Virus record (IMG/VR): IMGVR_UViG_3300045988_013649
Coordinates: 1-20,455 of that record
Strand: one strand, 5' to 3'
DNA: 20,455 nucleotides
DNA from: a virus
In this document: piece by piece, positions 1 to 20,455 of the stretch
Layout: each line of letters opens with the position of its first letter
How positions within the stretch are numbered: the first letter of the stretch is position 1
Position numbers and translations under genes: made by a program
The notes under the pieces: model-generated
Databases searched by the model: none
What the model saw: only the letters and a program-made list of their open reading frames with translations
Told to the model about the DNA's origin: nothing

Positions 1-28
1 TGGGCTCGGAGATGTGTATAAGAGACAG
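1..28. other. Illumina Nextera transposase adapter (library artefact)
   Basis: Bases 1-28, TGGGCTCGGAGATGTGTATAAGAGACAG, equal the 3' part of the Nextera Read-2 adapter. The 19-nt Tn5 mosaic end AGATGTGTATAAGAGACAG lies at 10-28. Confidence 0.97.
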
Positions 29-1914
29 TCACTGACTTTGCTCCATATATTTGTTGCTACAGTTAAGATAACAGACCAAATATTCGCTACGATTGTAGCT
101 ATGATTTCTACAATCGGCATGATAAATCCTAGTATAGTTGCAATAGCCGTTCCAACATATGTGATTACTGTACTTATAAATGAAATAATCCCACTTACAA
201 CACTTCCTACAACTGTTAGAATAGATGTTATTACAGGAATCATTTCAGTTATCACTGAGATAATCTTTTGAATAATTGCTAGAATCGGTGGTCCTACTAC
301 TGTAAGAATCTTTTGTGCTTGATTCACAATGTTTTGAATAACTTCAATAATCTTGCTTAATATATCTTTTGCGATAGGTTCAAGTGCAACTTTCATCTGC
401 TCAATTGCTTTTTTTACTTCATCAAATGCAGGCTTTAAGACTTTGGAAACTTGGTTAACGATATTTGTGATTCCACTTGTATCAATGCTACCAAATACGC
501 TTGAAATAACTTCACCGACTTTGGCAAACCCTTTTTGAATATCTTGTATAGCTAATGTAATTAATACAATGATACCGGAAAGAATAGGGGTAATAAGTTC
601 GCCGATTGGAGTAAATGAATCAAGAAATGCACGTCCTAAACCACTTAAAGCGTTCTTTAAGCCACCGTTTGCGATAGCCTTAACCTTATCCATTGTTCCG
701 GCTACATTGTTATATTCATCACCTACAGATGATAAAGATGTAATAAACTTAAGGTTGAAATCTTCTCCCATTGTGCCGAATGCAATACTTGCTTTGTTTA
801 ATGCTTCTTGTTGATTTGTTGTTTCCTTAATATCTTGGATGATTGCGTCTTGCACATCTTTTTGTGTTGCGCCACCTTCTTTATATGCTTGGAAAACTTC
901 TTTTGTCTTATCATTGAAACTATCTAATGATTTTTCGATAGTTCCGTCTGACATTCTTGTAGTAATTTCATTTACTGCGTCATGCGCTTTATCAAGGTTA
1001 TAAGAACCACTTTTTACACCATTTGTAATAGTTTGTAAATATTCTTCTGCCGAATATCCTGCTTGCTTGAATTTACCTGCGTATTCTGCAATATTATCAC
1101 CTAATTCTCCGGAATAATCCAAACCATTCTGAGCACCTTTTGCTATAAGGTCAAAAGCTTTTTCGGAACTGATTCCAAATTGTTCCATTAATTGTTTCGC
1201 ACCTCTTAAGGTCTCATTCTCATCCATTCCATAAGCGTCTCTTAATGTAATCAAATCCTCGGTCACATTCTTTAGGTCAACATCACTTATGCCTTGCATT
1301 TGTTGCTTGACTCTGCCCATCATATCGGCAACATCTGAAATATCTTCACCGAAATTATTAGACCAAACATCACGAGCAATGTTTTTAAATTTATTCATTT
1401 CATTACTTGAAGCACCTGTTTGAGCTTGGAATTTAGCCATAGCGTCATCTAATTCCATGGCTTGATTAACACCTGTCTTAATTGCTAATGCCATGCCACC
1501 GATAGCTCCTGCCACGGCAGTAACACCAACAACTCCACCAACGCCTAATCCTGTTAATGTTTCTGTGATTGCAGTAGCTTCCGGACTAATATTCTGAATC
1601 TTTCCTAATAGTCCGTCAAATCCACCTTGAATTGATTCTAATGCACTATTACCTACTTGTTTAAATACATCAAATTTAGAACCTGTTTCTGTTGTTTCTG
1701 TCTGTGTATTCTTTTGTTCGCTATTTAGCTTTCTTAATTCATCCGTAATCTTTGGTGGTGCTTTTGAACCCTCAGAACCTAACTTATCTATCGCATTTGA
1801 AGTATCTTTAATAGCATTTGTAGCTTTATTTGATACATCACTAACCGATTTAATACCATTTTCAAGACCACTTGTATCTATCTTTGTATCAAACTTTAAT
1901 GTTCCATCTGCTAT
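29..1914 (-). CDS. tail tape measure protein, C-terminally truncated by the contig edge
   Basis: I translated the minus frame from 1914 to base 1 and found no stop in 638 codons. It is absent from the ORF track because no stop is reached. The product reads ADGTLKFDTKIDTSGLENG...MELDDAMAKFQAQTGASSNEMNKF...GYSAEEYLQTITNGVKSGSYNLDKAHDAVNEITTRM. It has a Gly/Ala/Val TM-like segment and a long hydrophobic helical tail, and it lies downstream of the chaperone pair. The first 133 codons contain no ATG/GTG/TTG. ATA at 1912-1914 follows an in-frame TGA (1915-1917), with SD AAGGAGGTG at 1924-1932. Confidence 0.85.
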
Positions 1915-2875: not shown

Positions 2876-3382
2876 TTATACTTCTGATGTACCTTCTGTA
2901 AATGTTACTGTTCCATCTGCTACCTTTGCAGTACCGACACGAATATCACTTGCAAAGTTAATGTTGAAGTTGATTTTTGAATCGACACCACTTAATGTGT
3001 CAAAGATTAATTTAGTGTCAACTTCCCACGCTTTATATCCTTTTGTTTTGTCTCCGTCAAACATGAATACAAGTAAAGCTTTTGTGTTTACTTCTTCATT
3101 GTCCGGAACGGATTTCATCATTTTTTCATAGATGTATTCGAAATCATCTTCACCTTTAATCATTGTTAAATCTTGTGCAATCTGAGGTGAATAACTCTTC
3201 AATGATTCTGTAGGATTCTTATCTGCGATAAAGTCATATGTCTCCGTTTCACTGTTAAATGAAATATCCAAAGTTGTAGACTTCTTGATACGCTTGTACC
3301 CTGTTCCCATTTCCAAGAACAAACCAATCATATACTTTTTGACTGTTTGTCCTACGCTTACTTCAGTTCCTTGAGTTGTTAT
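2876..3382 (-). CDS. major tail protein (start placed at ATA 3380-3382)
   Basis: The track ORF is 2876..3331, but its ATG has no SD. The frame is open back to 3385, just after an in-frame TAA at 3386-3388. SD AAAGGAG (3391-3397) lies 8 nt before the ATA. The product is a beta-rich ~168-aa protein in the canonical tail-tube position. Confidence 0.75.
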   Translation of the reverse strand: MTTQGTEVSVGQTVKKYMIGLFLEMGTGYKRIKKSTTLDISFNSETETYDFIADKNPTESLKSYSPQIAQDLTMIKGEDDFEYIYEKMMKSVPDNEEVNTKALLVFMFDGDKTKGYKAWEVDTKLIFDTLSGVDSKINFNINFASDIRVGTAKVADGTVTFTEGTSEV

Positions 3383-3801: not shown

Positions 3802-4160
3802 TCACTACCTCCTATCATTTGTTGTGCTTTCTTTAAGATTGTTTCTGCTCCGCCATTTCGCATAGCTTTTTCAAACCAATGGTCTGTTTTACCACCAACG
3901 AAATGAGCGCCCTCTTTGTTGTAATACCAACGTCTTGCATATGGAGCACTTGGTCCACCTTGCTTTACTAATCCGCTACCGATTTGAGTATTTCTTGTAG
4001 CCGAGTTGATTAATGCTCCTGTATCTCTAGGCGTATAAGGGGACATAAGCCTAATGACTTCAGAATCAATCATTTGTTGAACTCGTCCACGTTCTTCAAG
4101 TCCTCTTGATTGCTTAATTTGGGGAATTGATTCAACATCAAGTTTGACTTTCATTCCTAT
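3798..4160 (-). CDS. HK97 gp10-like head-tail joining protein
   Basis: The sequence MKVKLDVESIPQIKQ...SPYTPRDTGALINS...YARRWYYN fits the gp10-family pattern (P..TG.L..S). The start is either ATG at 4152-4154, 16 nt from GGGAGG, or ATA at 4158-4160, 10 nt from the SD and overlapping the upstream TAG as ATAG. The track start at 4232 is nested in the upstream gene. Confidence 0.65.
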   Translation of the reverse strand: MGMKVKLDVESIPQIKQSRGLEERGRVQQMIDSEVIRLMSPYTPRDTGALINSATRNTQIGSGLVKQGGPSAPYARRWYYNKEGAHFVGGKTDHWFEKAMRNGGAETILKKAQQMIGGSE

Positions 4161-5016: not shown

Positions 5017-5886
5017 TTACTTAGCACTAGCAGATAAGTAAATACCTGCTACCTTATTTGCGTATACATCAACGATTCCATACTTACGATATTTCAATAC
5101 ATCTGAATCTGATTCAATGTTATTGCTTGCAGGAATTACATTTGAAACGGTGTGTTTATCCCATTTCATTACGGCAGGTTTATGAACAATCAAGAAGTTG
5201 ATTACGTGTCCATCTTCTGCCTTTTCGTATCCGCCATCTAACTCTGTATCTTTTCCACTCAACAATTTGATTTTTGTATAGAAACGACTAGCAGGTACAG
5301 GAACAACTTTTGCGAATCCTTGTAAAGCTTCACGAGATTTGTATGTATCTAATGCCTTAACGCCATTTAATAATGTAGGTGTAGCATACAAGATACGTTG
5401 TTCGCTAGGAACTTCATCTTCATCCATTTTAGTAGTTGCCGTTAATAATGCGCTCAAGAACTCTTCTGAAGTTGTATAATCTTCGGCAACTGTTGTGATT
5501 CCTGTTGTTCCGGCAATTTTAGCAAATGTATAAGCGTCTGCTTCCGGTGCTACCTTTGTACGCATTAATTCTGCTCCTGCCATACCGAACGCAATATTCA
5601 TTGATTCGGCATTGTCTTGTGTATCGACTGAGATTTTAGTTCCTCTATCATAGTCGAATGTAGCAGTTTTCCATTCTAACTTAACTGAGTTACCTGTATA
5701 ACCACTATTTCTATCATAGTTTCCTAAACCTTTGACTGAAATTTGTGGATAGATGATTTCTTTTGCGTTCGCTCCTGCTCGTACCATTGTAGCGTCTGCA
5801 TTTAAATCACCTGTTACTGAAGCTAACTTATACACCTCATCTAGATTTGAGACATACGTTTTAGCTAGTGCAATTTGATTTGGTAT
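5017..5886 (-). CDS. major capsid protein (start placed at ATA 5884-5886)
   Basis: The track ORF starts at GTG 5835, which has no SD. The frame is open to 5889, after an in-frame TAA at 5890-5892. SD AAGGAGG (5896-5902) lies 9 nt before the ATA. The extended N-terminus is IPNQIALAKTYVSNLDEVYKLASVTGDL. The body (GLGNYDRNSGYTGNSVKLEWKTATFDYDRGTKISVDTQDNAES) looks like a Firmicutes-phage capsid family, and the gene follows the scaffold gene. Confidence 0.85.
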   Translation of the reverse strand: MPNQIALAKTYVSNLDEVYKLASVTGDLNADATMVRAGANAKEIIYPQISVKGLGNYDRNSGYTGNSVKLEWKTATFDYDRGTKISVDTQDNAESMNIAFGMAGAELMRTKVAPEADAYTFAKIAGTTGITTVAEDYTTSEEFLSALLTATTKMDEDEVPSEQRILYATPTLLNGVKALDTYKSREALQGFAKVVPVPASRFYTKIKLLSGKDTELDGGYEKAEDGHVINFLIVHKPAVMKWDKHTVSNVIPASNNIESDSDVLKYRKYGIVDVYANKVAGIYLSASAK

Positions 5887-6580: not shown

Positions 6581-7762
6581 TTAGCCAATTCTAAGCCTAT
6601 CGTTGTGAATTCTATCTCCCATTTCAGTACTGAAAGCTTTATACGTTGCATTTGCGTGTTTTAGCTTAATTTTTGCTTCTGTACTGCTTAATCCTTGATT
6701 GTCCAATAAGATTACTTCCCTTTTTAATGCTCTGATGTTTCTTTCAAGCTCTCTTTGATACTGTCTAGCTTTATATCCTTCATATTTTTTTCCTTGGAAT
6801 GTGAAAGGCTTTGTATCAATATTCTTTAACTGGTCTTTTGTGTAAGCGTAAGGCATATCAACATCCCAAACCGGTTGTGCAAAGTGTCTACATCCGTAAT
6901 CTTTTTCTTCTCCATGCGTTAACTCATACAAGCTAGGATATAGTTTCCCTTGCGTATCGTATCGTTTTCCTTGCCACTTCTTATGACTTGGACGTGCATT
7001 TGCGTGAGCGTCAAATTCATATACAGTAACTCCCAAATCTTTAGCACATTTATTGTTAATTTCTTGTGATGATTCCTTTTCTGCATACTGCATTTGTTGC
7101 CTTACCCATACATCCAAATTTCTTTTAACTCCTGTATCATATTCCACAATCTTTACGCCACTATTTGCTAACTTTGAAATAGCTTTTCTGCAAGAATCAT
7201 CAATCGTACATTTACCATCTACCACATTTTTAACTTCTTCTTGAACTACCTTTGTAAAGAATACAGGTAGTTTATCTTTACCGATTGCATATGTATTTGC
7301 GTTTGATTTAATGTACTTCTTCCAACGCTTTGCGGTATCTTTCTGTGGACTTCTATATAAATCCATTTTTAGTTTCTTTTTGACAGGTTTCCCACTTGCT
7401 TCTTTGATTAAATCAAGTGTACCTTGCTTATTTTCTTCAAAGTCCTTTTTCGATTCATTGATTACATCTTTTTTTAGACTTTTTGATTCTTTTTTTGTGA
7501 ATTTACGCAAATCTACTAGTGATTTTGCTAATATCTCATTAAATTTTGCGTTTTCTTCGGTGCTTTTTTCTAAAGCTTCACGAATTTTATTAGAAATGAA
7601 TATCATCATCCCTAATTCAAATACACTAGCACGCTTTACGCTTTTTCTTTCTCTTTCTTCAAGCTTTCTTCTTTTCTCAATCTGCTTTTGTAGACGTTCT
7701 TGTTTCCTTTGTTCTTGCCTTCTTTTACGTTCTTGTTCCCTTTGTTCTTCTTCGCTTAACAT
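6581..7762 (-). CDS. minor head protein, Mu F / SPP1 gp7-like (Phage_min_cap2-like C-terminus)
   Basis: This is a 393-aa ORF with an ATG start and SD AGGGGGT. It carries the motif DAHANARPSHKKWQGKRY, typical of the Mu F head-morphogenesis domain. The N-terminus is highly charged (EEEQREQERKRRQEQRK). Confidence 0.8.
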   Translation of the reverse strand: MLSEEEQREQERKRRQEQRKQERLQKQIEKRRKLEERERKSVKRASVFELGMMIFISNKIREALEKSTEENAKFNEILAKSLVDLRKFTKKESKSLKKDVINESKKDFEENKQGTLDLIKEASGKPVKKKLKMDLYRSPQKDTAKRWKKYIKSNANTYAIGKDKLPVFFTKVVQEEVKNVVDGKCTIDDSCRKAISKLANSGVKIVEYDTGVKRNLDVWVRQQMQYAEKESSQEINNKCAKDLGVTVYEFDAHANARPSHKKWQGKRYDTQGKLYPSLYELTHGEEKDYGCRHFAQPVWDVDMPYAYTKDQLKNIDTKPFTFQGKKYEGYKARQYQRELERNIRALKREVILLDNQGLSSTEAKIKLKHANATYKAFSTEMGDRIHNDRLRIG

Positions 7763-10940: not shown

Positions 10941-11702
10941 CTACACCTCTAACTGAAAATAGAAATATCCTGCAGGACAAGTTTCTAAAGTTGGTACATC
11001 TGTACCTATCTTGTATTTAATTTCCTGTCTTGCTTTTAATTCCATCTGTTCTTTTTCTAAGTCTTGAATCATTAAAAGAAGCTTTCCACCTTCTCCTTCT
11101 CCAAGAACATCTTTAACAATTGCGAACCAATCATCCCATGCTTTTTGATTCTCTTGTATAGCTTTTGCGTATTCTTTTTTTGCTTCTGCTATTGCTTCTG
11201 CAAATTGGTTAAAGAATTGTGTTGTATCTATCTGCTTAATTGCGTTTGTAACAACTCCACATCTACTTGAATCTAATCTAGTATCAGTAATATCTGAGCC
11301 TTTAATTTCTGTTGAGTTACCTTGTACCTTTACAGTCGCTAAAACTAAATCATAGATAGAATCTGTTCTTGTGATTGATTCACTAGCTACTACACTAATA
11401 TTTCTATAAGAATCGTTGTCGTTTAATCTCAATACAATATTGTATGTCTTTGTGGAACTAGAATTTGTTAATGTGATGGTTTCGTCGTCTTTTTGCCAAT
11501 AGAACGCTCCATTAATGTTTGCTCGTCCTGCTTTAATTGTTAATGTTAAGCCTTGAGCTTTCTCAACTCTTAAATGGTCTGTACTAGAATCATCTACGAA
11601 CACGCCGTTTGTAAAGTAGCTTGAGAACAATCTTCTGAAAGCGTCATATAATACTAATCTATCACCATTTCTAGAGATGAATGGAAAATATGTTGTTGCT
11701 AT
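10941..11702 (-). CDS. tail-fibre-like protein (start placed at ATA 11700-11702)
   Basis: The track starts at TTG 11630. The frame is open to 11708, after an in-frame TGA at 11709-11711. The extended N-terminus is ATTYFPFISRNGDRLVLYDAFRRLFSSYFTNGVF, which matches the YFPF.S..GDR.Y.A..F...F..NGVF motif of prophage fibre proteins as I recall it. The ATA overlaps the portal TAG as ATAG. SD GGAGAGGAGG is at 11713-11722. Confidence 0.7.
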   Translation of the reverse strand: MATTYFPFISRNGDRLVLYDAFRRLFSSYFTNGVFVDDSSTDHLRVEKAQGLTLTIKAGRANINGAFYWQKDDETITLTNSSSTKTYNIVLRLNDNDSYRNISVVASESITRTDSIYDLVLATVKVQGNSTEIKGSDITDTRLDSSRCGVVTNAIKQIDTTQFFNQFAEAIAEAKKEYAKAIQENQKAWDDWFAIVKDVLGEGEGGKLLLMIQDLEKEQMELKARQEIKYKIGTDVPTLETCPAGYFYFQLEV

Positions 11703-13102
11703 TCTTCTTCATCCTCCTCTCCATCATCTTGAATTTCTTCATTTAATAACTCTGTTGCTTCTTCTTCAGTAAAGCCATATTGTTTCATGAAATACATAAT
11801 CTTTAATCTTGGAATATCAAATGTTAATGCGTCATTTCTTAACGCTTGTGCAGTGCTTTGCTTATCTTCGATATAAGTATCATCATAATCAATAGCAATG
11901 TCTAATGAATTAATATTAAGCTTTCTTCCTTGCGTTAATTCATAGAAGTATGCTATTGCTTGAATAATACCTTGAATATATGCAGTAGATTCTTTGCGTT
12001 GTGAGTTTACTTCCTTCATAGCGTCTTGATTCTCACCGATATATTCTGTTGCCGTTACGATTCTTCCACTCTCAAACGTGTATTTTTTTGTACCGAATCC
12101 AAACATCATAGATAAGATACTTAATGCAGTTTCTAACGACTGCACAACCTCTTGTGTTCTAACTGTTGGATTATATTCTTGCCATAAAGCTTTTTCTTCC
12201 GGCAACTTGTCTCTACCCAATTGCACGAAGATATTCTTTAATTGTGGATTCTGTTTCACTTTTCCGTTCTTGTCTTTCTGCATTAATGCTTCATTTACAA
12301 GAACGATTTTATCTGATTTCAATAAATCTCGATTCCACATTGTCATTGTCAAGTCAATTGTTTTCAAAGGAGCAATTGCACTCCAAATCTTAGGCAAGCC
12401 GTACCCTTGCATTTGTAAGTTGTTTACCTTTGCATTTCTCATAATTGCAAAAGGTTTAACCACATCTAATTGAACAATCTGAGCACGCTCTTTTATTTCC
12501 TCGCCTGTATCTTTGAAGTAATGTGTTTCTGCAATATATCTTTCGTCTTGTCCTTTTAAGAACATGACCATCACATATACTTTTTTTAACTTCTCATAAT
12601 TTACTCCAACGAAAGCTACCTCAACGATTTCATCATTGATAACAGTTAATGGGAGGATATTCATTGAATCACAATAGTTGATTCTGATTTCTCCTCCACT
12701 AAATGAACCATCTTCATAAATCTCGGCATTTGATACCGTCACATAAGCTCCTACTGTTCCGTTTGCAGACATTTGCTCAACTTGTTTCCTATACATTACA
12801 TCAAACCTATTCTTTGTTAGAATGTCTGAAATAATGTCATTTGTTGTACTGTCTTCAGTTGCGTTTATATCTAGGATTTCAATTAGGTTTGCGTCATCTT
12901 CGCATAAACGCTTTGCAAAGTCTGTCTTGTCTAGCGTGTATTCCTCATTGTTCAAGGTGTATGCCGTATGAAATTCTGTTTCGGTATTTGTGTACCACTT
13001 GTTGCACAATTCAATAATCTCAATTGCGTTTGTATCTACATAATACCCTCTATCGTTTAGGTAATTTTGAAACCACGGTCTACGTGTGTTAGATGTTTCT
13101 AT
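11699..13102 (-). CDS. portal protein, SPP1 gp6-like (start placed at ATA 13100-13102)
   Basis: The track starts at TTG 13009. The frame is open to 13105, directly after the terL TAA at 13106-13108. A perfect SD AAGGAGG (13109-13115) lies 6 nt before the ATA. The extended N-terminus is ETSNTRRPWFQNYLNDRGYYVDTNAIEIIELCNKWYTNTETEFH, which fits portal N-termini (..gy.v......I..W..WY.....FH). The protein is ~467 aa, has an acidic C-terminus, and follows terL. Confidence 0.88.
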   Translation of the reverse strand: METSNTRRPWFQNYLNDRGYYVDTNAIEIIELCNKWYTNTETEFHTAYTLNNEEYTLDKTDFAKRLCEDDANLIEILDINATEDSTTNDIISDILTKNRFDVMYRKQVEQMSANGTVGAYVTVSNAEIYEDGSFSGGEIRINYCDSMNILPLTVINDEIVEVAFVGVNYEKLKKVYVMVMFLKGQDERYIAETHYFKDTGEEIKERAQIVQLDVVKPFAIMRNAKVNNLQMQGYGLPKIWSAIAPLKTIDLTMTMWNRDLLKSDKIVLVNEALMQKDKNGKVKQNPQLKNIFVQLGRDKLPEEKALWQEYNPTVRTQEVVQSLETALSILSMMFGFGTKKYTFESGRIVTATEYIGENQDAMKEVNSQRKESTAYIQGIIQAIAYFYELTQGRKLNINSLDIAIDYDDTYIEDKQSTAQALRNDALTFDIPRLKIMYFMKQYGFTEEEATELLNEEIQDDGEEDEEE

Positions 13103-13105
13103 TTC

Positions 13106-14440
13106 TTACCTCCTTAAATCTATATATCCACTATGGGTTATAAATGTATAGCAGAACGAATCCCAATCATCATTGATATTGTTTACGTTCTCATCTATTG
13201 GAATGTCTTCCTTTTTATCCCATACCAATTCGCTTAATGCGTTTATTAAGTTCTTACAATGTTCTTCTATCTTTAGCCTACCTGTAACAAGTAAGCTATC
13301 AACCGTTATAGGACGGTCTGCAAGCTCATTCTTCTTAACTGGTGCAATTATACTTCCGTCTAATCCTTCGGCGTAAAAATAAGCTCTAAGCGTGTTTATA
13401 AGTGTATTTGAAGCACTATCCGGAAATATCCACTCTACATATCCGTAACATTCAACACAACGCTTATAGAACCTTACAAACGCTTTGCAAAACTTTGTTG
13501 CGTCTATTGCATTTGACTTTGCCATGTCTCCTTCATCAAGTGCCCACATATAATCCCAATCATTTGTAAACCCTGTTAAGTGCCATGAATACTTTGAGCC
13601 ATTGTCTCCAAAGTCAACACCTATGATTAAATGACTAAACCTTTTTCCTTTTTCATTCATCTTTTCTTTTAGACTCTGATATTTAAATAAATAAGGTTTG
13701 CAGTCATTTGCAAAATAAGGGAATACAAGTCCTTCGGCTTCTTCCCTTTGTCCTTTTATGTCTCTTTTGTAATAAACGCTATTCTTATCGTATGATTTCA
13801 AGACTGTTCTTATCTGCTCATCACTTAAAGAATAATTGTCAACTAAGGTGGTATGCCCATAGTTGTAACCATATGTAGAATCTTTATTCTGTTGCTCCTC
13901 ATGATATTTCAAGAAATCTGTGTAATACCAATGATTCTTGCCTTTTGGGTTTAAATCATGAAATATCTTTCTATCGCTTGACGCTATCGTTCTATCCATC
14001 ACTTCTTGTAGAAACTCAATGCAACAAAGGTTTGCTTCTGTTACATATGCCATTCCATAAGAATAACCATGTATTGCATTCTCTGAGCCTTTCTTAGCAC
14101 CACCGGCAAAGAATACAACCTTTTCTCCAACCTTTGTGTTGATGTAATAACAGTCTTTACCTTCATACTTTCCCACTTTGAATCTATTCGCAAAGTAGTT
14201 CTGCAATCCATATCCATTACAATCTCCAATATTAACACGTGCAGATGATGTATCTGTTCCTGCTATTAAATGGAACTTATCCGGATGTGTTTCTAAAGCA
14301 ATACAGAAAGCGTATGTATTTAATACATTCTTTCCGCCTCTTTTCCCACCTTCTAATACATTAAGCCATGAATCGAATGTTCTTTTAAGATAAGTTAATT
14401 GTTTTTGATTGAAAGGCGCAGGCTTATTCAAAATCTTCAA
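13106..14440 (-). CDS. terL: terminase large subunit (PBSX / Terminase_3-like)
   Basis: This is a 444-aa ORF starting at TTG 14438-14440, which is the first possible start after an in-frame TAG. It has a Walker-A-like LEGGKRGGKN and an N-terminal PFNQKQ motif. It overlaps the terS end. Confidence 0.9.
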   Translation of the reverse strand: MKILNKPAPFNQKQLTYLKRTFDSWLNVLEGGKRGGKNVLNTYAFCIALETHPDKFHLIAGTDTSSARVNIGDCNGYGLQNYFANRFKVGKYEGKDCYYINTKVGEKVVFFAGGAKKGSENAIHGYSYGMAYVTEANLCCIEFLQEVMDRTIASSDRKIFHDLNPKGKNHWYYTDFLKYHEEQQNKDSTYGYNYGHTTLVDNYSLSDEQIRTVLKSYDKNSVYYKRDIKGQREEAEGLVFPYFANDCKPYLFKYQSLKEKMNEKGKRFSHLIIGVDFGDNGSKYSWHLTGFTNDWDYMWALDEGDMAKSNAIDATKFCKAFVRFYKRCVECYGYVEWIFPDSASNTLINTLRAYFYAEGLDGSIIAPVKKNELADRPITVDSLLVTGRLKIEEHCKNLINALSELVWDKKEDIPIDENVNNINDDWDSFCYTFITHSGYIDLRR

Positions 14441-14813
14441 TTCTTCTTTCTTTTGCTACATCTGTAATCATAGCTTTATTAATTGCATTTACTTCTGAAG
14501 CGTCAAAATGTGTTTCTACCTTATCTGATTGACCTAGGAATTGTTTGCCTAAGAAAATAGCCATTGCAGGACTCTTTGAAGCTAGTTTAAATTGCGCTCT
14601 TCGTAACGAAATTCTTCCTTGTGCGCCGAACCTTTTTAAACATTCGGAGAAATCAGTTCCATATGTACGTTTGCACCATTTTGATAGTGTCTTATCTGTC
14701 GTGTTAAAAAAATAGCATACTTCTGCTTGCGTGCATTGAATAGCTAACAATTTTTCAAATTCTTCTTTGTCGAAATCCTTGTTAGGTCTTCCAACTTTTC
14801 CATTCGCTATTAT
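14424..14813 (-). CDS. terS: terminase small subunit with HTH (start placed at ATA 14811-14813)
   Basis: The body LAIQCTQAEVCYFFNTTDKTLSKWCKRTYG...ISLRRAQFKLASKSPAMAIFLGKQFLGQSD is a typical terS. The conserved N-terminal GRPNKDFDKEEFEKL lies upstream of the track TTG at 14750. The frame is open to 14825, after TAG at 14826-14828. The only start-like codons there are ATA ATA (14808-14813), 5 and 8 nt after SD AAAGGGG (14819-14825). Confidence 0.85.
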   Translation of the reverse strand: MIANGKVGRPNKDFDKEEFEKLLAIQCTQAEVCYFFNTTDKTLSKWCKRTYGTDFSECLKRFGAQGRISLRRAQFKLASKSPAMAIFLGKQFLGQSDKVETHFDASEVNAINKAMITDVAKERRIEDFE

Positions 14814-14953
14814 TACATCCCCTTTCTATATTTATCACTCAATATTTTTGGTGTGCAATGTTTCCAATCAACTTTGTGGTGCGTTCTTTTCGTAATGTGC
14901 GATGTCATTAATTTTTAATTTAATAATTTCCATTTTATTCCCCTTTTTTAAGC

Positions 14954-15199
14954 TCATAGAGCGTCATTTACATTTAGACAAGTATTTGTATTCTTGATGT
15001 ATTCATCAACGTATAATTCCTTTTTATCGCCGTTATACGTTACTTCATAATAATTATCCGTGCTCATAGCACTAATTAATGCTTTATTGTTTTGAAGTAC
15101 TTTAACCATCCATACAACGAACATTTCACTGATTGCAATATTTGGGTTTACTTGAAATACTGCCTTCATTGCTAATTCTTGAAATTCTCTTGAACCCAT
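14954..15199 (-). CDS. hypothetical protein
   Basis: This is an 81-aa ORF with an ATG start and a strong SD AAGGAGGAG 4 nt upstream. Confidence 0.65.
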   Translation of the reverse strand: MGSREFQELAMKAVFQVNPNIAISEMFVVWMVKVLQNNKALISAMSTDNYYEVTYNGDKKELYVDEYIKNTNTCLNVNDAL

Positions 15200-15222
15200 A
15201 TTCTCCTCCTTATTATTAAAAG

Positions 15223-15243
15223 AACCGAGACAAACGCTCGGTT
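15223..15243 (-). terminator. candidate intrinsic terminator downstream of the tRNA-like gene
   Basis: On the minus strand the hairpin AACCGAG-CGTTTGT-CTCGGTT has a 7-bp stem and is followed by CTTTTAATAA. Confidence 0.4.
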
Positions 15244-15397
15244 ATATACAAAAGCCTAATGGCATGCCTTATATTGTTGGTATTTAAATATATGATTTAG
15301 AGTGAATTAACGAATTTATATTTTGGCAGTCACAAATCACATTAATTTAGAAGTTATCATAAATTTAAGAAATATTAACCAATAGACTTTGTAAACA

Positions 15398-15473
15398 TGG
15401 TTGCAGGAGAAGGATTTGCACCATTCGACCTCTAGCTAATAAGACTAGTGAGCTACTACTGCTCTATCCTGCT
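15398..15473 (-). tRNA. tRNA-like gene, anticodon UAU (reads AUA), initiator-like acceptor and D arms; non-canonical T arm
   Basis: Hand-folded minus strand: AGCAGGA TA GAGC AGTAGTA GCTC A CTAGT CTTATTA GCTAG AGGTC GAA(T)GG TGCAAAT CCTTC TCCTGCA A CCA. All four stems form and the CCA is encoded. Anomalies are an A1xA72 mismatch, a bulged U in the T stem, G55 in the T loop, U37, and a short D loop with a single G. Confidence 0.55.
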
Positions 15474-15479
15474 AAAACA

Positions 15480-15488
15480 ATTATTACA
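15480..15488 (-). promoter_or_regulatory. candidate extended -10 promoter (TGTAATAAT) for the tRNA-like gene
   Basis: The minus-strand TGTAATAAT matches TGnTATAAT in 8 of 9 positions. Its last T is 7 nt upstream of tRNA position 1 (an A), so transcription could start at or next to the mature 5' end. I saw no convincing -35. Confidence 0.3.
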
Positions 15489-15496
15489 TGAAAAAA

Positions 15497-15513
15497 TGCT
15501 CACATTGTGAGCA
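15497..15513 (-). terminator. rho-independent terminator of the late-activator gene
   Basis: On the minus strand TGCTCAC-AAT-GTGAGCA has a 7-bp stem and is followed by TTTTTT. The TGA stop at 15500-15502 lies inside the stem. Confidence 0.7.
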
Positions 15514-15826
15514 CTTTCTTTAAATTCTTGTTTATTTTTCTTGGAATTTCTTCTCTTGCATAACCTACAATATTAGATGTCTTTTCTGCACTGAATCCCT
15601 TTATATATCTATACTCAATCATGGCTCGAGTCGTATCATCAAGTTGGCTTAATTTGTCTTTTACATAGTTCATTCTTCTTGCATAATCTGCATGAGCTAA
15701 GAATAGCTCGGCTTTTAAAGGATAAATTGCTTCATCCCTTTGTAACTCTGCTATCTTTTGCTCATAGTATGTATAAGATTGGCATTCACACAAGAAGTGT
15801 CGTTTTACATCTTCATAGGTGCTCAT
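15500..15826 (-). CDS. late-gene transcriptional activator, sigma-70 region-4-like HTH (RinA/ArpU/DUF1492-like)
   Basis: This is a 108-aa ORF with an ATG in an ATGA overlap. The C-terminal LDDTTRAMIEYRYIKGFSAEKTSNIVGYAREEIPRKINKNLKKV fits the region-4 HTH pattern. It sits in the canonical position just upstream of the terminase genes. Confidence 0.6.
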   Translation of the reverse strand: MSTYEDVKRHFLCECQSYTYYEQKIAELQRDEAIYPLKAELFLAHADYARRMNYVKDKLSQLDDTTRAMIEYRYIKGFSAEKTSNIVGYAREEIPRKINKNLKKVLTM

Positions 15827-16017
15827 GAACTGTATACCTTATACAATCTATCTTTTAATTCGCCAACTTCACTTCTTAATTTCTTGATTTCTTTAGCTTG
15901 AGTATGAATTGTTTCGTTTCTTTCTTTTATAGTCTGATTAAGCTTAATATTTGTCCTTCCTAATTTATTATTCTTTGAAATTAACTCTTTAATCCTTTCT
16001 TCATAATTCATTTCTAT
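15823..16017 (-). CDS. small coiled-coil hypothetical protein
   Basis: The track start GTG at 16024-16026 lies inside the SD (GGAGGTG) itself. ATA at 16015-16017 is 8 nt from the SD and ATG at 16009-16011 is 14 nt from it. All three are in frame, so the start is ambiguous. Confidence 0.6.
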   Translation of the reverse strand: MEMNYEERIKELISKNNKLGRTNIKLNQTIKERNETIHTQAKEIKKLRSEVGELKDRLYKVYSS

Positions 16018-16033
16018 TAAAGCCACCTCCGTA

Positions 16034-16621
16034 TTAATTTAATGTCTTTATAAAATCACAATATCGTTTTATATAGCTCCATTTGTTTGAATATTTGTAA
16101 TATTTGCTAGAATGCTCTCCTACACTTATTTGACTTATCCCTATAACATCTTTACTAGGAATTACTAATACATCTAAAACTTTTTCATCATCACTAAGTA
16201 TGTACAAGATATATATGTCGCAAGTTGGATATATTTTTTCTAAATTGAATGTGTAAAAGCTCCCATTCCTACCTCTGTATAAAGTACTCGCTTTCACATC
16301 AACTTTTACACATTCATTCACTAAAATATCATACGGATGTTTTGTAGACATTTTAATAGCTTCATATCCTTTATTCTCTATATAATCCATGAATTTCAAT
16401 TCATATTTTCTGCCGAAATTTGTTCTACTTGGTTTTGATTCTAAATGTAATTCTTTCGCTAAAGGAAACCATAAATTTCTTTTTGAAATTGCATTGCCTA
16501 ATTTTGAATCTCCATAGTATTCTTCAACTTCTCTTCTTGTAGGCATTCTGTTTAATCCTGTATCAATAATCATTTCTTTGATTTGTGATTTTATCTTTTC
16601 TTCTGTCCAGTGTTCTCTTAT
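16034..16621 (-). CDS. PD-(D/E)XK-like nuclease (possible free-standing homing endonuclease or resolvase)
   Basis: GRKYELKFMDYIENKGYEAIKMSTKHPYDILVNECVKVDVKAS gives an E...D...(D)xK arrangement like Hjc/restriction-fold nucleases. The frame is open upstream of ATG 16573, which has a poor SD, back to 16624. ATA at 16619-16621 lies 6 nt after GGAGGT (16627-16632). The extension reads REHWTEEKIKSQIKE. Confidence 0.55.
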   Translation of the reverse strand: MREHWTEEKIKSQIKEMIIDTGLNRMPTRREVEEYYGDSKLGNAISKRNLWFPLAKELHLESKPSRTNFGRKYELKFMDYIENKGYEAIKMSTKHPYDILVNECVKVDVKASTLYRGRNGSFYTFNLEKIYPTCDIYILYILSDDEKVLDVLVIPSKDVIGISQISVGEHSSKYYKYSNKWSYIKRYCDFIKTLN

Positions 16622-16674
16622 TAGTTACCTCCATTTTTTGACAATTTTATTCTATAGTTCGTCAAGCTATAGAA

Positions 16675-17157
16675 TTACTTAAAAGGTAAATCATCTGAAG
16701 CAATATTTAATCCGCTTTCAGTATATTCTTGTTGTGCAATTTGTTGAGTTAAGCTCGGTTGTGTATATGTGTTTTGAACGCCGTAAGCGTTGTTATTTGC
16801 TTGGTTTGGATATTGATATGCATTTACATTAGAACTGAAATTTTGCCCATTAGAAACGTTTTTAGGCGGTAATTGCACGTTGCTAGCGACAATTTCAGTG
16901 ATATAAATTCTTTGCCCTTGTTGGTTATCATAATTTCTAACGCTAATTCTTCCTTCAACTGTAACTAAATCACCTTTCTTGCAATACATATTCACAATAT
17001 CTGCTAATTTATTCCATGCTACACAATTAATAAAATCTGTAGTGTTATTATATCCATTTACTGCTACCGTAAATTTTGCTACGCTATTTCCATTTTGTGT
17101 TTTTGATAGTTCAACATCTTTAGTTAAGTGCCCTGCTATTACTGCTACATTAATCAT
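16675..17157 (-). CDS. ssb: single-stranded DNA-binding protein
   Basis: This is a 160-aa ORF with an OB-fold N-terminus (MINVAVIAGHLTKDVELSKTQNGNSVAKFTVAV...GDLVTVEGRI), a Gln/Asn-rich linker and the acidic tip DDLPF. It has an ATG start and SD GAGGAG. Confidence 0.95.
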   Translation of the reverse strand: MINVAVIAGHLTKDVELSKTQNGNSVAKFTVAVNGYNNTTDFINCVAWNKLADIVNMYCKKGDLVTVEGRISVRNYDNQQGQRIYITEIVASNVQLPPKNVSNGQNFSSNVNAYQYPNQANNNAYGVQNTYTQPSLTQQIAQQEYTESGLNIASDDLPFK

Positions 17158-20410: not shown

Positions 20411-20455
20411 TGTCTCTTATACACATCTCCGAGCCCACGAGACTCCTGAGCATCT
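20410..20455. other. Illumina Nextera adapter read-through with i7 index (library artefact)
   Basis: CTGTCTCTTATACACATCT (20410-20428) is followed by CCGAGCCCACGAGAC, then TCCTGAGC, then ATCT. This is the mosaic end, the Read-2 adapter, an 8-nt index I recall as N704, and the start of the P7 sequence. Confidence 0.97.

Follow-up and report, generated by a model that had tools for sequence, protein, structure and literature searches.

A phage tRNA gene with initiator features and the anticodon UAU co-occurs with ATA start codons of virion genes

Introduction

Which tRNA starts translation in a phage whose portal, capsid and tail genes open with ATA? The question is raised by IMG/VR virus record IMGVR_UViG_3300045988_013649, of which positions 1 to 20,455 (20,455 nucleotides, hereafter the window) carry a tRNA gene with the anticodon UAU just before the packaging genes. 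To our knowledge, every described natural initiator tRNA has the anticodon CAU, and dedicated initiation at a codon outside the AUG family is known only from engineered tRNAs. Our literature search, which covered open-access full text and bioRxiv, found no description of a natural non-CAU initiator tRNA or of ATA start usage in phages. An earlier note on this sequence had proposed that the tRNA is an initiator reading AUA and that it keeps the late genes untranslated until it is made. Comparison of the tRNA gene and of the start codons across related phages supported an AUA-reading phage initiator tRNA well, whereas temporal gating, although plausible, was supported only partly.

An initiator-type tRNA gene with the anticodon UAU

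The sole RNA family match in the window was a tRNA (Rfam RF00005, 48.8 bits, gathering score 29, E = 7e-8), in agreement with the earlier note, which had described the only tRNA-like gene as initiator-like with the anticodon UAU. ARAGORN reported zero tRNAs in the window, a result that we treated as a false negative given the Rfam match and the covariation described below. The bulged T-stem (GAA[U]GG/CCUUC) and the UGCAAAU T-loop are probably the cause, and ARAGORN does call close variants of this tRNA in related loci (L013, L116-L119; L numbers denote loci of relatives). The tRNA sequence is AGCAGGA-UA-GAGC-AGUAGUA-GCUC-A-CUAGU-CUUAUUA-GCUAG-AGGUC-GAA(U)GG-UGCAAAU-CCUUC-UCCUGCA-A-CCA. Its anticodon loop, CUUAUUA, gives the anticodon UAU in every clade member, where initiators have CAU.

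The remaining identity elements were largely those of an initiator. The acceptor stem has an A1.A72 mismatch followed by G2:C71 and C3:G70, each as in initiators, position 73 is A, and the D-stem contains A11:U24, a purine11:pyrimidine24 pair of the initiator type. A73 is counted among the bacterial initiator features, A11:U24 is diagnostic for initiators, and a 1:72 mismatch disfavours EF-Tu binding. The mismatch in combination with pairs 2:71 and 3:70 is also the major formylase determinant (PMC5389676). An elongator tRNA-Ile(UAU), in contrast, is expected to have a paired 1:72, Y11:R24 and a purine with t6A at position 37, whereas the window tRNA has A1.A72, A11:U24 and U37. The known elongators of this kind, in Mycoplasma mobile and in a suppressor of a B. 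subtilis tilS deletion, resemble it in that UAU reads AUA and IleRS is the probable charging enzyme, but they combine a paired 1:72 with ordinary D-stems and serve internal codons.

The tRNA was present in 35 IMG/VR contigs and approximately 34 metagenome contigs. Eight variants occurred within the clade, and more divergent homologues had a canonical T-arm (L118/L191), C1.A72 (L119/L205) or G1.A72 (L234), with the CUUAUUA loop and U31.G39 common to all. The anticodon stem of the window tRNA contains A29:U41, G30:C40 and U31.G39; G29:C41 was found in L027, L118, L119 and L234, and C31:G39 in L013. Folding of the single sequence was uninformative (z = -0.96). Covariation was assessed over 17 homologues, in which UAU-type tRNAs were aligned with the CAU tRNAs of sister phages. 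The cloverleaf was 95% paired, with compensatory changes at 12 pairs, and these values were reached in 0 of 500 shuffles. Acceptor pairs 2-7, the D stem and the anticodon stem were 100% paired, and G2:C71, C3:G70, A11:U24, G30:C40 and A73 were invariant. Position 1:72, on the other hand, was unpaired in 16 of the 17 homologues through six different base combinations, a pattern that should be expected if the mismatch itself, and not a particular sequence, is selected.

ATA start codons in the window

Eight genes open with ATA behind a Shine-Dalgarno (SD) sequence, at 16621, 14810 (terS), 13102 (portal), 11702 (head protein), 9545, 5886 (capsid), 3382 (tail protein) and 1914 (tape measure). All eight codons lie 0-5 codons past an in-frame stop and at normal spacing from SD sequences whose predicted pairing, -8 to -13 kcal/mol, is on par with that of the best ATG genes. 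The nearest downstream ATG, GTG or TTG follows at 7-133 codons and has no SD, and the profile hidden Markov model matches of the ATA-start proteins begin at profile positions 3-8. The reading is ambiguous for two further ATA codons (16017 and 4160), each followed by an ATG two codons on. Stop-codon recoding or readthrough as the cause of the "missing" starts was rejected: the open reading frames (ORFs) are intact under translation table 11, and each has its own SD. The unusual codon role is limited to gene position 1; internal AUA is ordinary and the stops are standard.

The earlier note had placed the non-canonical starts in the packaging, head, tail and fibre genes. Most of the eight genes are of these kinds, but the late module also holds canonical starts, namely TTG in terL and ATG in the scaffold gene, in the genes at 7762, 9343 and 10937 (large variable fibre-like) and in several head-tail genes. 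Confinement of ATA to the late module did not hold either, as the gene starting at 16621 lies upstream of both the putative activator and the tRNA.

Conservation of the ATA starts across relatives

Codon 1 of the capsid gene was ATA in 39 of 39 close-clade loci (92-100% identity). Among more distant relatives, all 45 from IMG/VR (54-66%) have ATG at the aligned codon, as do 17 of 19 that come from genomes; for the remaining two, the alignment begins a few residues in and ATG is present in the adjacent sequence. The residues that follow the start, P/A-N-x-I, are conserved in the ATA and ATG groups alike. Portal genes began with ATA in 44 of 44 clade loci, and the codon was kept in the head protein (43 loci, even at 60% protein identity), the tape measure (32 loci) and the tail protein (30 loci). 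For terS, alleles elsewhere in the clade start with ATA or ATG, and the ATA of the window-type terS is conserved. Exchange of ATA and ATG at the same codon behind identical SDs was also seen, in the tail protein (ATG in L016) and in a 202-aa gene (L017 versus contig 058288). Among homologues of the gene at 4160, the downstream ATG is missing in some clade members (ATA GGT ATC...).

A census was taken of SD-preceded codons that open long ORFs without a nearby canonical start. In the clade, ATA was the top codon with 221 sites, and the runners-up were its in-frame neighbours; in neither sister clade was ATA enriched. Credible ATA starts numbered only one or two in the 1.9 Mb covered by 108 sister and neighbour loci. 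SD strength, proximity to stops, profile alignment, conservation and the same-codon ATA/ATG exchanges together indicate that the ATA codons are genuine starts.

Public gene calls for one relative (L270, ENA ERZ27300091 contig) shorten every ATA-start gene: portal 436 versus 467 aa, head protein 229 versus 253, capsid 272 versus 289 and tail protein 144 versus 168, with terS called at 46 aa. The gaps hold strong SDs. As standard gene calls shorten ATA-start genes in this way, the phenomenon would stay hidden in annotated genomes.

Inside genes, the ATA share of Ile codons was 27.5% in early genes, 15% in late genes and 10% in ATA-start genes (contig 058288, L010 and L107, genome-wide). Supply of an elongator for AUA decoding in late genes was rejected on this codon usage. 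The depletion of internal AUA possibly reflects a codon bias of highly expressed genes or avoidance of spurious internal AUA initiation.

Co-occurrence of the tRNA and ATA starts

The tRNA was found on 29 of 35 IMG/VR contigs with an ATA capsid start. Of the other six, five (L012, L019, L024, L026 and L031) end before the expected tRNA position, and L017 is a hybrid that involves an unrelated group of 45-kb phages; the tRNA lies on another contig of that sample, 6 kb long. A covariance model built from the alignment detected no UAU initiator-type tRNA in the 66 sister loci and nothing in the six tRNA-less contigs. Relatives that keep the ATA starts and lack the tRNA, which the earlier note had named as evidence that would speak against it, were represented by no informative contig.

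The two traits also travelled together outside the clade. In the L205/L119 lineage, SD-ATA starts were present on terS, portal, capsid and two more genes, alongside a homologous C1.A72 tRNA with the same CUUAUUA loop, although its capsid is only 53% identical to that of the window and many ATG lineages lie between them on the capsid tree. The ATA trait therefore tracks the tRNA and not the capsid phylogeny. Likewise, the portal of L234, which carries the G1.A72 tRNA, starts with ATA. The survey of relatives called for by the earlier note thus found UAU initiator-like tRNAs and ATA-start structural genes together across lineages, and the combination of an odd-anticodon phage tRNA with matching unusual codon use, as looked for in codon reassignments, was present.

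The clade is common in public human-gut data, with two 90%-identity protein clusters of 764 and 680 member sequences. Exact-protein matches were to ENA and Logan metagenome contigs only. Species-representative genomes contained sister-clade prophages only, with 47-69% capsid identity, in Lachnospiraceae and other Clostridia, and the only named genomes reached by the homologue search (Amedibacillus) were at 40% identity. Megablast of 13000-17000 against GenBank phages gave no match; in the protein search against phages, relatives had at most 52% identity, and the best, MT835795, is ATG-type and lacks the tRNA.

CAU initiators in related phages

CAU initiators were identified in 12 of 66 sister loci, and in L042, L055 and L121 they occupy the same genomic slot, flanked by a small regulator-like gene and the terminase genes. 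U37 is common among the CAU initiators of phages: a further 41 IMG/VR phage contigs (L273-L313) carry an initiator-type CAU tRNA bearing U37 instead of A37, in the loop CUCAUUA, and their 1:72 mismatches are very varied (C.U, A.C, A.A, U.U and C.A). In both the sister-phage set (L042, L055, L068, L077, L121) and L273-L313, the body is homologous to that of the window tRNA, with a 1:72 mismatch, G2:C71, C3:G70, A73, A11:U24 and the variable loop AGGUC. They differ in the anticodon stem, which has three G:C pairs in L042, L055, L068 and L077 and two to three in the U37-type set, more than in the window tRNA. The start codons differ as well: all genes inspected in phages with CAU initiators start with ATG, GTG or TTG, unlike those of the window phage. 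Some sister-phage CAU loops are odd (C33 in L042; G37/C38 in L055), and phage-borne initiator tRNAs with anticodon loops unlike those of hosts appear to be widespread. The backbone xGCAGGA...UCCUGCx was found in some of the U37 CAU phage initiators, and a single C34-to-U change in a U37 CAU tRNA would give the window tRNA.

Other UAU initiator-like tRNAs have A37 (L116, L117/L263, L197, L210, L227, L238 and L250). Either the sequence examined showed no ATA starts or the contig was too short, and L116, L117/L263, L197, L210, L238 and L250 were excluded from the core claim. Two of these, in L250 and L238, have near-perfect tRNA-fMet bodies with three G:C pairs and UAU and are singletons on short metagenome contigs. 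Members of the A37 group could be separate cases in their own right, elongators, or host genes misread in sequencing. Elongator-type tRNA(UAU) genes, found in the ATG-type relatives L137 and L059, do not resemble the window tRNA and are not accompanied by ATA starts.

A proposed mechanism for AUA initiation

These observations make it quite likely, in our judgement, that AUA is read by a dedicated initiator tRNA of the phage's own. Such a tRNA would have arisen from a phage-borne tRNA-fMet-like gene in which a C34-to-U change turned CAU into UAU; a phage-borne CAU ancestor is suggested by the CAU version that sister phages retain in this slot, with the late-regulator gene on one side and the terminase genes on the other. 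The retained 1:72 mismatch, G2:C71, C3:G70 and A73 would mark the tRNA for formylation and keep it from elongation, and the retained G30:C40 would preserve the anticodon-stem pair most critical for P-site licensing. Around ten phage genes have switched from ATG to ATA with their strong SDs kept, among them terS, portal, head protein, major capsid, tail protein, tape measure, distal tail protein and a few early-side genes.

The anticodon is the main identity element, and MetRS needs C34. Charging with isoleucine by IleRS is therefore most likely, and after formylation the proteins would begin with (formyl-)Ile and not with Met. In the P site, tRNA(UAU) would pair fully with AUA, so that initiation would be efficient only when the phage tRNA is present. 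In line with this, binding of an unmodified UAU anticodon on B. subtilis ribosomes is strong at AUA and weak at AUG, unmodified U34 discriminating against AUG on Firmicute ribosomes (PMC3919564), and AUA initiation with the normal initiator in E. coli in vivo reaches 1-2% of AUG (10.1101/063800). The candidate payoffs are insulation of virion genes where the phage tRNA is absent, delayed or dosed expression, and independence from host tRNA-fMet.

A wider reading, which we favour with somewhat less confidence, is that of natural orthogonal initiation. The window tRNA would be the first natural non-CAU initiator tRNA; approximately ten mostly virion proteins would start at AUA, probably with formyl-isoleucine, and their production would depend on the phage tRNA and not on host tRNA-fMet. 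The system would have evolved by one anticodon change followed by ATG-to-ATA conversions, and would have spread between lineages with distant capsids.

Several points weigh against these readings. Of the three G:C pairs typical of initiators (29:41, 30:40 and 31:39), the tRNAs have one or two only. Natural initiators with au/GC/gu anticodon stems exist, with G30 essential for P-site licensing (PMC5389676), but the third pair of the window tRNA has the reverse purine-pyrimidine orientation to these variants. Position 37 is U, and the bulged T-stem, G55 and a D-loop without GG could mean that the window-type tRNA is weak or unusual, although the T-arm is canonical in L118 and L191. UAU initiator-like tRNAs occur in L116 (U1:A72) and L117/L263 (within a tRNA array) without ATA starts in the sequence examined. 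Conversely, in the sister-clade locus L066, the homologue of the gene at 4160 (8190, plus strand) has a credible ATA behind an SD (GTAGGTGA) and its capsid starts with ATG; no tRNA is visible on this 8.9-kb contig, and the close relatives L063, L065 and L058 have ATG at that position. With an optimized initiation region and normal E. coli components, AUA mRNA performs about as well as AUG mRNA in vitro (PMC5499595), and strong SDs might allow some use of the host initiator at ATA. Charging and formylation, use of the P site and the identity of the N-terminal residue are features that we infer, and these searches did not identify the host of the phage.

Comparison with known systems

Among the closest known parallels are engineered E. 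coli initiators, such as tRNA-fMet with CUA at UAG and i-tRNA-AAC at GUU, in which, as proposed here, an initiator tRNA body with a changed anticodon starts translation behind a normal SD, at the non-AUG codon that matches the anticodon. The earlier note had appealed to such altered initiators. In a published example, the engineered initiator starts only at its complementary codon, with the amino acid that follows the new anticodon and in formylated form (10.64898/2025.12.21.695813); the CUA anticodon was used with a reporter (PMC5389676). Those are laboratory constructs acting on one reporter gene, with bottlenecks in charging and formylation. The window tRNA, in contrast, is natural and conserved, shows compensatory evolution and would serve approximately ten essential phage genes whose starts have co-evolved; it also has fewer G:C pairs, and U37.

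In mitochondria, AUA means Met and serves as a start, read by a single tRNA-Met with the anticodon CAU and a modified C34. AUA initiates there as it would here, but the window phage would have a separate UAU initiator beside the standard code. In crAss-like and Lak phages, suppressor tRNAs accompany in-frame stop recoding that is concentrated in late or lytic genes. There, as would hold here, a phage tRNA with an odd anticodon makes a structural or late-biased subset of genes translatable only with the phage's own tRNA, and the corresponding concentration of ATA starts in late or structural genes was found here (28.6% versus 5.9%, in related loci). The difference is that a stop codon is reassigned in elongation in those phages, whereas here the sense codon AUA would serve as a start and the ORFs are intact.

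A natural, conserved UAU initiator with co-evolved ATA starts would break the CAU rule and would be the initiation counterpart of phage stop-codon recoding. For annotation, it matters that standard gene callers shorten or miss ATA-start genes; for synthetic biology, the system would offer a ready-made, evolution-tuned orthogonal initiator for Gram-positive hosts. It would also give a handle on why an initiator tRNA of their own, often odd in its anticodon loop, is found in so many phages.

Does the tRNA gate late translation?

The earlier note had further proposed that the tRNA is transcribed only after a late activator is expressed, so that AUA-start genes would be translationally silent until late, a timer on top of transcriptional control. 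The local order on which it relied, a late regulator-like gene, terminator, tRNA, terminator, small gene and terS with ATA, was confirmed, and the tRNA marks the early/late boundary exactly, preceded by the regulator-like gene and followed by terS. ATA starts were enriched approximately fivefold on the late side, at 139 of 486 genes (28.6%) against 32 of 545 (5.9%) on the early side, although the loci are related and the p-value overstates their independence; in one near-complete genome, ATA opened about 11 of 27 late genes and 1 of 40 early genes. Gating would also parallel the stop-codon recoding of late genes in phages. Against it stand the use of ATA on the early side, in the gene lying upstream of the activator, in an IKFVIKG... 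gene and in genes resembling replication organizers, and the many late genes that keep ATG or TTG in the same operon. Nor was a dependence of the tRNA on the activator indicated. ATA starts are enriched among late genes but not confined to them, and we regard gating as a tentative possibility.

Transcription of the tRNA bears on the same question. An extended -10-like motif, TGN[A/G]ATAAT, is conserved 6-7 nt before tRNA position 1 in the window, L108, L010, L118 and L257, as read from the alignment; it suggests that the tRNA may have its own promoter, possibly independent of the activator. A two-hexamer promoter scan found nothing convincing near the tRNA and did not pick up this motif. In L234, a terminator directly follows the tRNA. 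The position after the regulator terminator, the conserved -10-like motif and the L234 terminator together suggest that the tRNA may be an independent transcription unit. Co-transcription of the tRNA with late mRNA, in turn, would add little timing information.

The activator assignment itself is weak. The gene at 15500-15826 matched a PHROG sigma factor (E 4.6e-4) and Sigma70_r4 (E 0.01, 15.7 bits against a cut-off of 24.1), with NCBIfam sigma models far below their cut-offs, and its positional equivalents in sister phages gave weak DUF1492 and DUF722 matches. Its position upstream of terS is one that we take to be typical of late regulators of Gram-positive phages (RinA/ArpU/DUF1492/DUF722/sigma region 4-like). 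The label of activator is thus putative, resting on this sub-threshold similarity to sigma-70 region 4 and on gene position.

Other readings of the tRNA and the ATA starts

The same initiation mechanism might serve another purpose. Phage initiators with altered anticodon loops would stand in for host tRNA-fMet that has been cleaved or depleted, for instance by VapC-like anticodon nucleases. A UAU anticodon would take away the nuclease target, and would free initiation of virion genes from host tRNA-fMet and possibly from MetRS. The odd CAU loops of the sister phages (C33 in L042; G37/C38 in L055) and the 41 contigs with U37 in place of A37 fit this purpose, as does a published hypothesis that changes in phage tRNA anticodon loops evade anticodon nucleases, VapC-LT2 being known to target tRNA-fMet (PMC10264068). 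On the other side, ATA is found in a subset of genes, and the many ATG genes would still need host tRNA-fMet. No nuclease or defence system was identified for the host, and this rationale is one that we infer throughout; we consider it rather unlikely.

Initiation by host fMet-tRNA-fMet (CAU) at near-cognate AUA, with strong SDs tuning expression and the phage tRNA(UAU) unrelated to initiation, for instance an elongator for AUA (Ile), is improbable. The E. coli cell-free result (PMC5499595) speaks for it, and AUA occurs ordinarily within these genes as a codon for Ile (87 of 400 Ile codons), ARAGORN labels homologous tRNAs "tRNA-Ile(tat)", and L116 has a similar tRNA and no ATA starts. The in vivo level of 1-2% of AUG (10.1101/063800), on the other hand, is hard to square with the demand for major capsid and major tail proteins. 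ATA starts are absent from approximately 100 related or neighbouring loci without the tRNA, including sister phages with equally strong SDs, and the tRNA combines a conserved 1:72 mismatch and A11:U24 with homology to CAU initiators. Internal AUA is depleted, not enriched, in late and ATA-start genes, and the true elongator tRNA(UAU) genes of L137 and L059 go with ATG starts.

An artefact, with ATA arising from sequencing or assembly errors of ATG or the tRNA being a mis-sequenced host tRNA-fMet, could be suspected from the untrimmed assembly of the window, which has Nextera adapters at both ends, and from the singleton "perfect tRNA-fMet with UAU" genes on short metagenome contigs (L250, L238), possibly errors themselves, but is effectively refuted by recurrence. 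The same ATA codons and tRNA come back in dozens of assemblies that are independent and stem from different projects (IMG/VR, ENA, GenBank WGS and Logan), and they do so amid variation in the surrounding sequence, with compensatory changes in the tRNA and with ATG starts that remain ATG.

Layout of the window and minor observations

All genes of the window lie on the minus strand, with early-type ATG-start genes from 20453 down to approximately 16700. The head-tail morphogenesis module follows the order terS, terL, portal, head protein, variable genes, scaffold, major capsid, head-tail genes, tail protein and tape measure. Coordinates are collected in Table 1.

Table 1. Features of the window around the tRNA gene and along the late module
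Feature	Position	Strand	Start codon and remarks
Gene of 195 aa, function unassigned	16034..16621	-	SD (TGGAGGT)-ATA start; upstream of regulator and tRNA; phrog_28936 match from residue 4; ATA kept in relatives
Putative late transcription regulator, 108 aa	15500..15826	-	ATG start; sub-threshold sigma-70 region 4 matches
Terminator-like hairpin (GTGCTCACA-ATG-TGAGCA) and T-run	15491..15516 (15497-15513 for the hairpin and T-run)	-	Directly 3' of regulator gene; clade-conserved
Extended -10-like motif TGTAATAAT	15480..15488	-	6-7 nt upstream of tRNA position 1; candidate tRNA promoter
Initiator-type tRNA, anticodon UAU, CCA encoded	15398..15473 (Rfam match 15401-15473; CCA 15400-15398)	-	Rfam RF00005
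GC-rich hairpin and T-run, terminator-like	15223..15243	-	Immediately upstream of SD of first post-tRNA gene; kept in all clade members inspected
Small DUF6275 gene	14954..15199	-	ATG start, strong SD; Pfam PF19791, E 7e-25
terS (terminase small subunit)	14424..14810	-	SD (AAAGGGGA)-ATA at 14810 (or 14813); PHROG terS; first canonical codon 20 codons downstream
terL (terminase large subunit)	13106..14440	-	TTG (canonical) start overlapping terS end; PHROG and Pfam terminase matches
Portal protein	11699..13102	-	AAGGAGGT-N5-ATA, one codon past terL stop; phrog_533; next canonical codon 31 codons downstream
Head protein	10941..11702	-	SD-ATA start; phrog_1220 match from residue 3
Gene of 69 aa	9336..9545	-	GGAGGG-N6-ATA start
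Major capsid protein	5017..5886	-	AAGGAGGA-N8-ATA; phrog_422 match, residue 3 aligned to profile position 3
Head-tail gene, 120 aa	3798..4160	-	ATA optimally spaced from GGGAGGT; ambiguous given ATG two codons downstream
Tail protein, 168 aa (likely major tail protein)	2876..3382	-	AAAGGAG-N8-ATA
Tape measure protein, runs off window	1..1914	-	AAAGGAGGTG-N9-ATA directly after TGA stop; PHROG and Pfam matches; next canonical codon 133 codons downstream

The TTG start of terL has no recognizable SD, and the gene overlaps the end of terS by 17 nt (14424-14440, minus strand). The overlap suggests translational coupling to the ATA-initiated terS, and terL output may hang indirectly on the tRNA. Between the tRNA and the first gene after it, the window (15223-15330, minus strand), L036, L118 and L191 share a conserved motif (AAATACCAACA...GGCAT...TTAGGCTTT) followed by a conserved GC hairpin and T-run immediately before the SD of that gene; this arrangement could be a late promoter with an attenuator or an antitermination site. 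A 21-codon ORF at 14868-14933 (minus strand; MEIIKLKINDIAHYEKNAPQS*) resembles the remnant of a truncated ParB-like gene, which is full length at the equivalent position in relatives (L118 8493, L225, L234; ...KPYENNPR...).

The window ends, 1-28 and 20411-20455, are Illumina Nextera adapter, with TGGGCTCGGAGATGTGTATAAGAGACAG at the start and, at the end, CTGTCTCTTATACACATCTCCGAGCCCACGAGAC joined by an index-like TCCTGAGC; adapter at both ends indicates that the reads behind the contig were untrimmed, and part of the first ORF, at 20453 (MLRSLVGSEMCIRDS...), is adapter sequence.

Two further observations concern relatives. The unrelated 42-47 kb phages L154, L167, L168, L182 and L189 share a portal-like gene with the hybrid contig L017, and their contigs end at a tRNA-Asp(GTC) gene, probably the attachment site of the prophage. 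L137, a Ruminococcaceae contig with a distant capsid relative, carries adjacent genes for its elongator-type tRNA(UAU) and a tRNA(CUA) at 745-900; the latter is amber-suppressor-like, was labelled Pyl by ARAGORN and may point to stop-codon recoding in that phage.

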